NCBI RefSeq assembly: GCF_054482595.1
Contig: NZ_CM137008.1
Reading direction: 5' to 3' (one strand)
Length of the DNA: 64,000 bases
Shown: piece by piece, positions 27,201 through 33,200 of the stretch
Layout of the letters: each line of letters opens with the position of its first letter
Position numbering within the stretch: position 1 is the stretch's first letter
Program-made: the position numbers

Positions 27201-30200
27201 GGGTAAAGTTGGCGTAGAAAATCTGGTTAATGCGGTGCCGCAACTGAAGGACATTGCGAACGTTAAAGGCGAGCAGGTAGTGAATATCGGCTCCCAGGAC
27301 ATGAACGATAATGTCTGGCTGACACTGGCGAAAAAAATTAACACCGACTGCGATAAAACCGACGGCTTCGTCATTACCCACGGTACCGACACGATGGAAG
27401 AAACCGCTTACTTCCTTGACCTGACGGTGAAATGTGACAAACCGGTGGTGATGGTCGGTGCAATGCGCCCGTCCACGTCCATGAGCGCAGACGGTCCCTT
27501 CAATCTGTATAACGCGGTAGTTACCGCAGCTGATAAAGCCTCCGCTAATCGTGGCGTACTGGTAGTAATGAACGACACTGTTCTGGATGGCCGTGACGTC
27601 ACTAAAACCAACACCACCAACGTAGCGACCTTCAAGTCTGTTAACTACGGCCCTCTGGGTTACATTCACAACGGTAAGATTGACTACCAGCGCACCCCGG
27701 CACGTAAGCACACCAGTGATACGCCGTTCGATGTCTCTAAGCTGAATGAACTGCCGAAAGTCGGCATTGTTTATAACTACGCTAACGCATCCGATCTTCC
27801 GGCTAAAGCACTGGTAGATGCGGGCTATGATGGCATCGTTAGCGCTGGTGTGGGTAACGGTAACCTGTATAAATCCGTGTTTGACACCCTGGCGACCGCC
27901 GCGAAAAACGGCACTGCGGTAGTGCGTTCTTCCCGCGTACCGACGGGAGCAACCACTCAGGATGCCGAAGTGGATGATGCGAAATATGGCTTCGTCGCCT
28001 CTGGCACGTTGAACCCGCAAAAAGCACGTGTTCTGCTGCAACTGGCTCTGACGCAAACCAAAGATCCGCAGCAGATCCAGCAGATATTCAATCAGTACTA
28101 ATAACCTCGCCCCGGTAACGTGCCGGGGCTTTTATAGTATTGGTTTTAGGCAGTTTAATGAATAAAGTGACAGACATGAATAATGGGGACCATTTCAATA
28201 CATAATGGTTTTCTTGTACCCATGAAATGTGGTTAATTCCGGATTTATCGGGAGGGGCTTGTTAATGATATCCTGATGCTCATCGTGATGATGAGTAACA
28301 TTCATAAAATGTGCTTATCAAAAACCGTGGAGTATTACTTGGCAGATAGATGAGCGAATTCACAGTTGAATCCAGAGAAATAATATCCTCTGTTCACTGG
28401 TAGACCAATGTTGTTCCAGGACAAATTCATTCACGATAAAATTGCGGAAAAAACGGGCAGGATTGGTAACGAAGCATCCGGGAGAATATACTCTTTCTGA
28501 ACAATGGGGGAGTGCCATGCATCAGTGTAAATGTCAAAAAATCTGAAATCTTCCATATTTACCGCACATAACTATTCCCTGACCATACGTTTATCCTCTT
28601 AATATCCGGAACACACTCTCCAGAAATTATCGCACGATGAGTTTATTGTGATTAAGTAGATGTCATAATTATGGTAGATAAATGATTAAAAGGCTTACGG
28701 TTTTTCACTATATTTTTTAATATATGGGTAATATTGATGTCTTATCCAGTAACGATAAGCAGGGCGACCAGTGACACCACAGGAAAAATCAAATGCCAAT
28801 ATATGGCAACTTACCAGCCAGATGATATATTTTCTGCATGAGATTCTGGATATCTTAATACCACTGGCCAGTTCATTGAGTGTGAATTTTTTATGTTGAT
28901 GCTCATCAATCCACCTACAAATAATTCGCAATGTATCTGTTGACAGTCCTTTGGGTAAATGTCTTATTTTTTCTGTGTTCGGAATTATTTTGTGAGTTAA
29001 TAAATCCAGTTCTGATTGATTGAATATCTTCTGACTCTCAAGAAGAGTCTTTTTATGTTTCCATCGTGTAAGCGAATCAACCAAACGTGAGATATGAAAT
29101 GGCTTTATCAGATAATCAGAAACACCATAATGTAATGAATCTTTAATTGTCGCAGAGTCATCAGCAGCAGAAATTACAATAACATCACTTTTGCAATGAA
29201 TGCTATGAAGAAAAGGGAGTAAATCAAGTCCGTTATCTTTATTGATATAAAGATCAAGCAAAATCAAGTCAGCCAGTTTTTTATTTACAGATATAATTTC
29301 TTTCGCCTGACCAAGTGATAACGCTATGCCACAGCATTTAAATGCCGGGGTTTGTTCTACAATGCGACGAATCACATCAGCTACTAATATATCGTCATCA
29401 ACAATTAATACATTGTTCATTTTTCCAACCTAGCTTGCCAACGTAATACCTAAATCTATATAAATATTCTATATAGTGATTTAAAAATCAACCCTATTGT
29501 TACTTATGGAATTTAATTAACTTTCCCTGGGTTAGATATACTATTTAATATTTCCCCGTTAAAATAAAATGTGAAATTATTTTTGTTAAAAATTTTAAGA
29601 GGGAAATGGATTAGTTTTTTTTATCATTGGTTCTGTGTCATTAACTTTGGAGTTAGTAACTCTACTTCTAAGAACGTTTTTTGAAAAAACATTGCTTATA
29701 CTAAACATTATAGTAAAAAGAGTGACACCTGATCAACCTACAACAGTGATTACACCAGAGTGTATATCTCTGTATATTTTCTGTGACGAGTACAAAATAT
29801 CAAGTTAACCCACTCAGATCGTACAGCAGAACCTTGTAATTTCCACGCAACTCACTGATTGGAGATACATCTAATTTTTATTTCCATGGCTGAGATTACT
29901 AAGAACGTGTTCTGTTGTATTGTTATCCGTTTTTGTCAAACCATTATCACAGTTCATTCGGATATCTCTGATACTGATCTCCTCAGACCTGCATAATTAC
30001 AACTTCTGTTGGTTCCGCGTCACCAGGTAATCAACACCCAACTGTTGGTTCTGTCCTTGGACGGGAACACATGTTGGCAGGTAACTCCCATCCAGTGAAG
30101 ATAAATTTCTCAAAAGGCAACTACTCAGGCAAGTTCTCCTTTATGTTTATGCCTGATAATATTTTCCAGATCGTATAAGGCGTCGATACGTACAGAAGAC

Positions 30201-33200
30201 GTGGCACTCAGACTTACGCATCCCTGCTCTAACTTAACATAGTCTGCTATGATAGCGCTCTCTTTACCAATAAAGCTCGCTTATATATCAAAGATACCTT
30301 ATTAGGATAAACACAGCTAATAACTTGACAGTGATATCACATAGCACTCACACCAGATAAGTTTTCCGGTTGAGTTTTAGTTTTTGAAAGATTTAATGCT
30401 ATATTTTCTTTTCCAGTAAATGAACTCGCATTAACTCTGAAGCCATTTGGGCATCGCCTTTTTTGATATACGACAATATCTCTCTCTGTTTTGAAGCAGT
30501 ATCAAGGAAGTATTGACAATCATTATCCGGTAACGACTCTCTTGTTTTCTCAAAATAAGCGATTAACACATCAGAGAAAACCTGCAGAACACGATTACCA
30601 CTGGCCTGAAGCAAGAGCAGGTGAAAATCCCGATCATGTTGATCTGCTATTTGTGGATTGTCTGCATTTTCCTCAATCAATCTCAATTCATTTTCAAGTT
30701 TGGAGAGCATCGCTGGGAAAATTCGGCGTGTTGCCAGTGGAATGATCGCGCACTCAACTAAAATTCTGGCCTCTGTAAATTCCGAGATATCAAACCCAGA
30801 TAGATCAAACTGCATCAACAATTGGTCGTTAATACTACTCTGGCCAACGTTTTTTAACAGACTTCCTCTGCGAGGGGCTCGTTCAAGCATTCCCATTTGG
30901 ACGAGAGTACTAAGTGCCTGACGGACTTTATATCGGGAGGTGTTAAAACGAGTTGCAAGTTCCGTTTCTGTTTCTATACGGCCATCGGCTTTACGATTAG
31001 CTTCATCAAGCAAATAATCTTTAATAGATTCAAATAGTTCTTTTCTTTTATCCATAATATACTCTGATTACAGCTCCTATCTATTCATAACTATAAATAA
31101 TATATTAAATTATATTTCTTTATATACTATCATAACAAATTTATTTATCATGTTTATTCGCACATTATGTGTAGACTGGCCCCCTGAATCTCCAGACAAC
31201 CAATATCACTTATTTAAGTGATAGTCTTAATACTAGTTTTTAGACTAGTCATTGGAGAGCAGATGATTGATGTCTTAGGACCGGAGAAACGCAGACGGCG
31301 TACTACACAGGAAAAGATCGCTATTGTTCAGCAGAGTTTTGAACCGGGAATGACAGTCTCCCTTGTTGCCCGGCAACACGGTGTGGCAGCCAGCCAGTTA
31401 TTTCTCTGGCGCAAGCAATACCAGGAGGGAAGTCTTACTGCTGTGGCCGCAGGAGAACAGGTCGTTCCTGCCTCTGAACTTGCTGCCGCCATGAAGCAGA
31501 TTAAAGAACTCCAGCGCCTGCTCGGCAAAAAAACGATGGAAAATGAACTCCTTAAAGAAGCCGTTGAATACGGGCGTGCAAAAAAGTGGATAGCGCACGC
31601 GCCCTTATTGCCCGGGGATGGGGAGTAAGCTTAGTCAGCCGTTGTCTCCGGGTGTCGCGTGCGCAGTTGCACGTCATTCTCAGACGAACCGATGACTGGA
31701 AAGATGGTCGCCGCAGCCGTCACTCAGATGATACGGATGTGCTTCTCCGTATACACCATGTTATCGGAGAGCTGCCCACATATGGTTATCGTCGGGTATG
31801 GGCGCTGCTTCGCAGACAGGCCGAACTTGATGGTATGCCTGCGATCAATGCCAAACGTATTTACCGGATCATGCGCCAGAATGCGCTGTTGCTTGAGCGA
31901 AAACCCGCTGTACCGCCATCGAAACGGGCACATACCGGCAGAGTGGCTGTGAAAGAAAGTAATCAGCGATGGTGCTCTGACGGGTTCGAGTTCCGCTGTG
32001 ATAACGGAGAAAAACTGCGAGTCACGTTCGCGCTGGACTGCTGTGACCGTGAGGCACTGCACTGGGCGGTCACTACGGGCGGCTTCAACAGTGAAACAGT
32101 ACAGGACGTCATGCTGGGAGCGGTGGAACGCCGTTTCGGCAACGAGCTTCCGGCGTCTCCAGTAGAGTGGCTGACGGATAATGGTTCATGCTACCGGGCT
32201 AATGAAACACGGCAGTTTGCCCGGATGTTGGGGCTTGAACCGAAGAACACGGCGGTGCGGAGTCCGGAGAGTAACGGCATAGCAGAGAGCTTCGTGAAAA
32301 CGATAAAGCGTGACTACATCAGTGTCATGCCCAAACCAGACGGGTTAACGGCAGCAAAGAACCTTGCAGAGGCGTTCGAGCATTATAACGAATGGCATCC
32401 GCATAGTGCACTGGGTTATCGCTCGCCACGGGAATATCTACGGCAGCAAGCCAGTAATGGGTTAAGTGATAACAGGTGTCTGGAAATATAGGGGCAAATC
32501 CAATGTGCATGATATTAAGCTATTTGTTGACGAAAGGGATTGGTTATGATGTTATTCGTAATTCAGTTTGCAATAGTACTTACATGCATTGGGATAGGTG
32601 GGCACTTTGGTGGAATCGGCTTAGGGGCGGCGGGGGGATTAGGGCTCGCAATTCTGACTTTTGGTTTTGGAGTCCCGCCTGATTCCCCGCCTATCACTGT
32701 CATTTCCATTATTCTTGCTGTTATCACATGTATTGCTATCCTGCAGGCAGCGGGAGGTCTTGATCTTTTCGTGACAATAGCTGAAAAAATACTGCAAAAG
32801 AGGCCTGGTGCAATCACGTTTCTTGGGCCAGCAGTTGCTTATCTTTTTACGGCAATATGTGGAACTGGTTATGTCGCTTTTTCCATTTATCCTGTTATTG
32901 CTGAAATCGCAGCTGATGCAAGAGTGAGGCCAGAACGCGCCATGTCAATGTCAGTCATTGCCGCCAACTTTGGTCTTATAGCGAGCCCAGTAAGTGCGGT
33001 CGTTACAGGAACGATTGCGGTCTTTTCCGGATTACATGTTTCTGCTTTAGATATTTTATTGATTACTGTACCGGGAACTATTTTGGGGTGTCTTGTTGGT
33101 TGTTTGTTTGTTTATAAACGGGGCCATGATCTTGAAACGGACCCAGAGTTTCAACGCAGAGTTGCAGAAGGTGAATTTGAGTCAGTAAAAACTGGGGAAC

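Follow-up and report, generated by a model that had tools for sequence, protein, structure and literature searches.

In Escherichia coli K-12 the sensor kinase gene dcuS directly precedes dcuR, the gene of its response regulator, with an overlap of 4 nt, and the same arrangement, which a sequence-only reading of the present locus had taken as the norm, is found in another E. coli contig. The 64,000-nt stretch of E. coli DNA analysed here (contig NZ_CM137008.1 of RefSeq assembly GCF_054482595.1, GC content 45.9%; referred to as the window) contains a dcuR-like gene without such a partner. The sequence-only reading had found no kinase gene next to the regulator, and both the annotation and a search with DcuS agree, with none in the genomic island that carries the gene or anywhere in the window. 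This raises the question of what became of the kinase, and of what the 978 bp of DNA upstream of the regulator gene (here called the gap) represent. Our analysis points to a functional stand-alone paralogue of DcuR on a mosaic island that lacks a kinase, with the gap being a non-coding joint between two gene modules and not a decayed kinase gene. We consider this the probable explanation of the locus, in which three features are of immediate concern:

28695–29420, minus strand: dcuR-like gene of a stand-alone response regulator of the CitB/DcuR family, 241 amino acids (aa), with a receiver domain and a DcuR-type helix-turn-helix (HTH) domain.
29421–30398, no strand assigned: the gap, 978 bp of non-coding DNA where a GntR module meets the dcuR-like unit; it probably includes the promoter and leader of the dcuR-like gene.
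30399–31055, minus strand: gene of a FadR/GntR-family regulator (Pfam GntR and FCD domains).

Coding content of the gap

The gap contains no open reading frame (ORF) of 60 aa or more, in agreement with its initial description as an ORF-free stretch, and the next ORF on the strand of the dcuR-like gene is that of the FadR/GntR-family regulator. The longest ORFs in the gap, both on the plus strand, are 57 aa (29635–29808) and 45 aa (29859–29996) in length. The absence of longer ORFs is not beyond chance expectation, because 57% of 500 dinucleotide shuffles of the gap also have no ORF of at least 60 aa (the mean longest ORF among the shuffles was 59.7 aa). The gap was also described as AT-rich, which is correct in absolute terms (35.0% GC) but does not make it special in comparison with the dcuR-like gene itself (34.3% GC; the GntR gene has 40.2%). 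The gap is unusual for how far it runs without a gene and for the lack of a kinase. It is without annotation by RefSeq/PGAP in all E. coli records listed, it contains no meaningful repeats, and no other copies of it were found outside the island in E. coli genomes or plasmids.

Decay of the kinase gene in place was among the possibilities raised by the sequence-only reading, but similarity searches at the levels of DNA, protein and domain families as well as the codon periodicity of substitutions are all without a trace of a kinase. The best tblastn match of K-12 DcuS (543 aa) to the gap scores 15.4 bits, compared to a mean of 15.1 bits (standard deviation 2.35) in 100 dinucleotide shuffles searched with E up to 100, 49% of which equal or exceed the score of the gap. 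A sensitive blastn comparison of the K-12 dcuS–dcuR locus with the island shows homology that begins only 11 nt 5′ of the dcuR-like start codon. When the six frames of the gap were compared with Pfam with stop codons masked and E up to 10, two weak, irrelevant matches and no kinase domain were obtained. No protein family was found when the three minus-strand frames were scanned in full with HMMER against 1.84 billion representative proteins, and a word-indexed protein search with the three plus-strand frames returned nothing. The HMMER scan yielded only five “proteins” of 36–90 aa, which are ORF calls on copies of the gap DNA. A recognisable, frameshifted dcuS-like gene, which would have made the locus an ordinary decayed two-component pair, was looked for and none was found.

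Two of these ORF calls led to contigs with diverged alleles of the region, L098 and L100, in which an E. coli region with LysR, racemase, DcuB and TPR genes is joined to the GntR 3′ end; the entire gap comes next, with the dcuR-like, ansB-like, dcuA-like and aspA-like genes behind it. The L098 allele is 92.7% identical to the window over positions 30752–28303 and differs from it in the gap by 122 substitutions and one 1-nt indel. These substitutions exhibit no codon periodicity, either in the gap as a whole (33/46/43 by codon position, p = 0.32) or in any 150-nt sub-window. The gap is plain non-coding DNA with no coding signal and no remnant of a kinase, and it is best annotated as non-coding and not as a pseudogene.

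The gap as a joint of two modules

Homologues of the GntR-family regulator (87% identical in Citrobacter freundii, and 70%, 62% and 50% identical in more distant genomes) are always located in a unit composed of an argH-like lyase, two DcuB-like transporters and the GntR gene. Neither a kinase nor a response regulator is present in these homologous four-gene units in Citrobacter and the three more distant genomes. The window aligns with the module of C. freundii at 77–78% DNA identity, and the alignment ends at position 30408, only a few bases short of the GntR stop codon. A tblastx comparison of the gap with the sequence that follows the GntR gene in Citrobacter detected no similarity. Because the GntR gene belongs to a separate four-gene module, which never carries a two-component system elsewhere, the gap is the joint of two modules with different ancestry, an aspect that the sequence-only reading had missed. 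The first module consists of the lyase, the two DcuB-like transporters and the FadR/GntR-family regulator, and the second of the dcuR-like, ansB-like, dcuA-like and aspA-like genes. The partner kinase of the dcuR-like regulator, if there ever was one, would have disappeared without remnant or stayed in the donor at the time the joint was formed, and would not have decayed in place.

An intact DcuR paralogue under purifying selection

The dcuR-like gene had been judged intact from its sequence, and this is borne out by an uninterrupted ORF of 241 aa. The protein matches the Pfam Response_reg model with E = 1.3e-17 and the NCBIfam equivalog model of DcuR (NF007750) with 312.9 bits compared to a cut-off of 262, with residues 1–238 of the 241 covered. 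It aligns with K-12 DcuR end to end, at 56.9% identity over 239 aa and with a single one-residue gap. In an alignment with 16 DcuR orthologues, ranging from Escherichia to Erwinia, the regulator retains D8/D9/D10, D56, S84 and K106. The acceptor residue of DcuR is D56, which has been mutated in earlier work (PMC9429925). Residues 150–238 align with the 16 orthologues without gaps, with the LPKGL, ISR(V/I)SCRKY(L/I)IWL and GVTGRP motifs kept; Pfam has no matching model for this C-terminal DNA-binding domain in either the island regulator or K-12 DcuR. Among solved structures, the receiver domain of PDB entry 5lwk is the nearest in sequence (E = 7.7e-18).

Of the 126 columns in which at least 15 of the 16 DcuR orthologues agree, the regulator deviates at 38, five of them in helix alpha1 of the receiver, and we therefore regard it as a paralogue and not an orthologue of DcuR. 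A DcuR orthologue is separately present in the same genomes as the island copy, and the GC content of K-12 dcuR is 49%, compared to the 34.3% of the dcuR-like gene. The RefSeq label “DcuR” reads as if the protein were the orthologue, whereas it is a distinct paralogue.

A second diverged allele is found in about 21 complete genomes, in which an IS5-family insertion sequence (IS) element, ISKpn26, truncates the gap at a distance of 114 nt from the dcuR-like gene (L083, 9001–10163; L084, 9001–11499). The rest of the gap and the module of GntR, DcuB-like and lyase genes are gone from this allele, and the dcuR-like gene is intact. The dN/dS ratio of the regulator gene in the window is 0.207 relative to the L083 allele and 0.145 relative to the L098 allele, with dS of 0.11–0.15. 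The substitutions relative to L098 are distributed 8/4/22 among the three codon positions (p = 0.0004), and the reading frame is intact in all uninterrupted alleles examined. The regulator gene is thus intact and under purifying selection. The amino-acid differences between the alleles of the regulator are mostly located in the receiver domain, several of them by D56 (positions 54, 57, 61 and 62).

Mosaic divergence and a candidate promoter

The divergence among island alleles is uneven. In comparisons spanning positions 27400–29535 for L083 and 28303–30752 for L098, it changes from approximately zero in the aspA-like and dcuA-like genes to 4–9% between the 3′ half of the ansB-like gene and the dcuR-like gene, and to 23% just 5′ of the latter. 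The highest value refers to the proximal gap (29421–29699) in comparison with L098, and the remaining gap is 8% diverged from the same allele; relative to L083 the proximal gap is 16% diverged over the 114 nt that survive there.

The sequence-only reading had proposed as an alternative that the gap is a long regulatory region or a 5′ untranslated region. This is plausible but unproven: the gap contains a promoter-like site with a conserved −10 element, its least conserved part is the presumed leader, and structured RNA was not detected. The relevant features are as follows:

29707–29736, minus strand: candidate sigma-70-like promoter, TTGATC and TATAAT separated by 18 nt, with 10 of 12 matches to the consensus.
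29421–29699, no strand assigned: proximal gap (presumed leader), the most AT-rich (25–31% GC) and most divergent part of the gap.
29767–29843, no strand assigned: block of 77 identical nt, the longest shared by the window and L098 alleles.

The candidate promoter lies approximately 290 nt upstream of the dcuR-like start codon. Its −10 element TATAAT and the surrounding sequence are identical in L098, and the −35 element differs by one base. No FNR sites with up to two mismatches were detected in the gap, and a single weak CRP-like site is located at 30326–30341.

Proposed function and competing explanations

The island collects genes for the metabolism of aspartate and asparagine and for the transport of C4-dicarboxylates. 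We propose that the dcuR-like gene is transcribed from its own promoter in the gap, for which 29736–29707 would be the best candidate, with a leader of approximately 290 nt. Activation of the regulator would occur through phosphorylation of Asp56 by a kinase whose gene lies elsewhere than on the island. The strongest candidate is the DcuS of the core genome, given that it partners the closest paralogue and is almost universal: 5415 of the 5426 complete E. coli genomes encode it, at a median of one copy each. DcuS could be replaced in this role by another kinase or by acetyl phosphate, as the predicted kinase-docking helix differs from that of the true DcuR orthologues. Likely targets of the regulator would be the neighbouring aspartate, asparagine and C4-dicarboxylate genes, which would in this way be brought under C4-dicarboxylate control.

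Several observations weigh against this interpretation. The choice of partner between kinases and response regulators is encoded in helix alpha1 of the receiver domain. In this helix the regulator contains the replacements A11I, M12L, L16V, N17I and Y20I at positions that are otherwise invariant (AMVA-LN--Y), and because of these changes DcuS may not be its partner. The comparison of dcuS and dcuR copy numbers described below was made at the level of DNA, and a kinase more diverged than the regulator would escape it. Among 5.8 billion clustered proteins the regulator has no relative in the range from 57% to about 90% identity, and because nothing lies between the 57% relatives and the regulator's own 90% cluster, no donor lineage or ancestral arrangement is visible; a search of genome contigs for closer relatives gave only matches of at most 41% identity, the peptide patterns being too specific. 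The promoter of the dcuR-like gene is a match to a consensus and as such a prediction, and no part of the gap evolves faster than the presumed leader, which makes a conserved regulatory RNA in that segment unlikely. Finally, the distal 700 nt of the gap are less diverged from L098 (Jukes–Cantor distance 0.086) than are the synonymous sites of the dcuR-like gene (0.154). The lower divergence could reflect an unexplained constraint or mosaic recombination, and because the divergence of the whole island is mosaic we do not take it as proof of constraint.

One alternative, also raised by the sequence-only reading, is that the cognate kinase is encoded elsewhere in the carrier genomes as an unlinked, diverged paralogue of the DcuS/CitA family. 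The receiver domain keeps all phosphorylation residues, and a helix alpha1 unlike that of the DcuS-partnered orthologues would be expected in a regulator that serves a different kinase. However, no kinase is found in the window or in the PGAP annotation of 31–43 kb around the island in SMS-3-5, TUM12357 and one plasmid, and the island moves on plasmids and occurs in varied chromosomal arrangements without a kinase. A “distant” blastn search with K-12 dcuR finds 5644 places in 5414 genomes, the approximately 230 extra places being island copies (a plasmid copy, for example, at 69.8% identity), whereas K-12 dcuS under the same settings yields 5421 places in 5415 genomes, with approximately 6 extra and partial matches. 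A search with the sensitivity to find the diverged dcuR thus finds no diverged copy of dcuS, and we consider an unlinked kinase paralogue improbable.

It is also conceivable that an unannotated functional element resides in the gap, for instance a small protein, a small RNA or a leader RNA with a cis-regulatory role. Such an element would be in line with the lower divergence of the distal 700 nt, with the ratio of one indel to 122 substitutions and with the presence of two identical blocks, one of 77 nt and a second of 62 nt (30092–30153). The lengths of these blocks, however, fit the 8% local divergence and are not clearly beyond chance, which leaves the 77-nt block a candidate regulatory site only, and mosaic divergence alone can account for the uneven conservation. 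With respect to RNA structure, a single plus-strand window of 120 nt in the gap has a fold z-score of −3.2, but the scores of 45 of the 46 sliding windows lie between −2 and +2, and the two Rfam matches obtained with E up to 1 are both far below the gathering thresholds and outside the gap. Only one candidate for a small protein, the 45-aa ORF, keeps its length in both alleles, but 8 of its 45 residues are changed, nearly all substitutions in it being protein-altering, and the sub-windows of the gap lack codon periodicity. An element of this kind is unlikely to be the explanation of the gap.

A third possibility is that the regulator is a functionless relic of the rearrangement that removed the kinase, and is heading towards decay. 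The missing kinase, the AT-rich composition and the replacement of 30% of the DcuR-conserved columns would fit with this scenario, and so would the IS element that truncates the upstream region in approximately 21 genomes and the one that interrupts the gene in contig L099. On the other hand, the frame is intact in every examined allele except L099, the dN/dS ratio stays at 0.15–0.21, neither the catalytic residues nor the HTH motif has been lost, and the gene has been kept in three independent arrangements and on plasmids, which makes a relic decidedly unlikely. The in-place decay of a dcuS-like gene is very improbable: dcuR normally comes directly after dcuS, the gap lies exactly at the position of the kinase, and IS elements and pseudogene debris are plentiful in the island, but the gap amounts to only 60% of the 1632-bp dcuS, it has neither DcuS similarity above the level of shuffled sequence nor a kinase domain, protein family or residual codon periodicity, and with the flanking genes intact and the regulator still 57% identical to DcuR a remnant of the kinase should be recognisable.

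Of the sequence-only reading, the intact regulator without an adjacent kinase stands, whereas a dcuS decayed in situ was not found, nor, within the reach of the DNA-level search, a diverged kinase elsewhere.

Comparison with known systems

The regulator resembles the DcuR of the K-12 DcuS–DcuR system (b4125/b4124) in that it passes the DcuR equivalog cut-off and shares the D56 acceptor, the acidic pocket, S84, K106 and the ISR-SCRKY-IWL helix, and its gene, like K-12 dcuR, is located among genes of C4-dicarboxylate transporters and the aspartate pathway. It differs from K-12 dcuR by the lack of a preceding dcuS, by a GC content of 34% compared to 49%, by its accessory nature and by the 38 of 126 ortholog-conserved columns that are changed. 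No remnants of K-12 DcuB or FumB, which that strain encodes downstream of dcuR, were detected in either of the spacers that flank the dcuR-like gene. The sister system CitA–CitB (DpiB–DpiA) includes a regulator of the same family and domain layout, but the DpiA model scores the island protein with 104.7 bits, far below its cut-off of 264, which places the protein clearly on the DcuR side.

With orphan response regulators the dcuR-like gene shares the absence of an adjacent kinase gene and the intact phosphorylation residues. Unlike orphans in general, it appears to be a recent paralogue of DcuR, the cognate DcuS–DcuR pair being still present in the same cell, and it is carried on a mobile metabolic island. 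A two-component system borne on an island of uropathogenic E. coli is known in KguS/KguR (PMC3694859), a complete kinase–regulator pair, whereas the island in the window has a regulator only. KguS/KguR is pathogen-associated and helps E. coli use abundant host metabolites (alpha-ketoglutarate, as the name of the system indicates).

The closest parallel to the arrangement described here is a paralogue of DcuR in Citrobacter amalonaticus (P0054; L087, 8001–8723, GCA_032742855.1), 240 aa in length and encoded by a gene with 36.5% GC, in whose neighbourhood there is neither a kinase gene nor a remnant of DcuS. The gene is located directly upstream of an operon of anaerobic metabolism, a ydhYVWXUT-like ferredoxin/aldehyde-oxidoreductase operon, and it neighbours IS debris, with IS fragments located upstream in the related contig L088. 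The C. amalonaticus protein is 46% identical to the island protein and 60% identical to DcuR, the DNA upstream of its gene is unrelated to the gap, and it fronts an oxidoreductase operon where the island regulator sits by aspartate and asparagine genes. The two cases suggest that the arrangement of an AT-rich DcuR paralogue without a kinase recurs.

Gene content and distribution of the island

The segment 28100–31300 of the window is 100% identical to many complete E. coli genomes, and 177 of the 5426 contain no less than 80% of it. The gap, at a coverage of at least 80%, is found in 193 complete E. coli genomes and in five conjugative IncF plasmids. The dcuR-like gene is an accessory gene, present in approximately 4% of complete E. 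coli genomes and on IncF plasmids; many of the carriers, among those listed, are of poultry origin. In strain SMS-3-5 (L001) the island adjoins the cobUST and asn-tRNA region, and its order starts with an isoaspartyl peptidase/asparaginase, dcuC and pepT, followed by the aspA-like, dcuA-like, ansB-like and dcuR-like genes, the gap, the FadR/GntR gene, the two DcuB-like transporters and the argH-like lyase. Apart from the features already listed, the window contains the following:

23677–25077, plus strand: aspA-like (aspartase-like) gene (ORF, PGAP name).
25233–26567, plus strand: dcuA-like transporter gene (ORF, PGAP name).
27055–28101, plus strand: ansB-like asparaginase gene (ORF, PGAP name).
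28102–28694: gene-free spacer of 593 bp between the convergent ansB-like and dcuR-like genes.
28109–28129, plus strand: terminator-like hairpin for the ansB-like gene.
31172–32502, plus strand: IS3-family (IS2-like) element of 1331 bp, with transposase ORFs at 31218–32491 (IS3 family transposase in PGAP).
32540–33862, plus strand: DcuB-like transporter (ORF).
33978–35294, minus strand: DcuB-like transporter (ORF).
35359–36741, minus strand: argH-like lyase (ORF).

The IS2-like element is absent from SMS-3-5, and alignment to that genome shows that it is flanked by a 5-bp duplication (ATGTG) and splits the divergent promoter region of the GntR gene and the first DcuB-like gene. The insertion may change the expression of the GntR/DcuB module. 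Three further long, AT-rich, gene-free spacers (31–39% GC) are present in the island at 22812–23676 (865 bp), 26568–27054 (487 bp) and 28102–28694, the first of which includes an FNR-like site with one mismatch at 23405–23418.

The aspA-like, dcuA-like and ansB-like genes are linked to the dcuR-like gene in every full-length arrangement (L001, L083, L084, L086, L098 and L100), and in L099 an IS element interrupts the dcuR-like unit. The gap together with the dcuR-like, ansB-like, dcuA-like and aspA-like genes is kept whole in the chromosomal arrangement of the window and SMS-3-5, in the arrangement on IncF plasmids and in that of L098. The five conjugative IncF plasmids carry the core of the island, composed of dcuC, pepT, the aspA-like, dcuA-like, ansB-like and dcuR-like genes, the gap, the GntR gene and a truncated DcuB-like gene; in one of them, pMTY9754_IncFIB-I (L086; NZ_CP128940.1, 39095–64072), the gap is 99.7% identical to that of the window. 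An apparent additional arrangement, in the ENA scaffold BRIT20-1...16685 (L101), was rejected, as a string of N connects 155 nt of the gap there with two unrelated genes, one of them for a LacI-type regulator, in what is a chimera of metagenome scaffolding.

A second aspartase-like gene is located at 2775–4175 on the minus strand and is 99% identical to the island copy of SMS-3-5. Beside it are a DcuB-like gene (4398–5696), an Asp/Glu racemase gene (5755–6474) and a divergent LysR gene (6814–7713), and the segment 2775–7713 represents a further aspartate and C4-dicarboxylate module approximately 20 kb from the dcuR-like gene. Beyond the lyase, SMS-3-5 contains pseudogene debris (L001, 21770–24595) annotated as ClbP (colibactin peptidase), a thioesterase and an IbrB-like protein, which suggests the remains of other islands at the asn-tRNA/cobU hotspot. 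The RefSeq accessions of the regulator and the island are not mentioned in any paper found.

Implications

If the proposed interpretation is correct, an acquired island of aspartate, asparagine and C4-dicarboxylate genes would be induced by C4-dicarboxylates without a membrane sensor of its own. We tentatively speculate that AT-rich DcuR paralogues without a kinase may be a recurring device by which mobile metabolic modules are plugged into the resident DcuS, with one sensor serving two regulators, although we are more inclined to doubt than to accept this generalisation. The regulator would otherwise be a fairly ordinary orphan, as orphan regulators and long AT-rich spacers are well known in acquired DNA. 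If DcuS does serve the regulator, the locus would provide a natural example of an acquired island that is wired into an existing signalling pathway through its output half only, and it would bear on how transferred metabolic modules are regulated and on how much cross-talk between paralogous regulators is tolerated.

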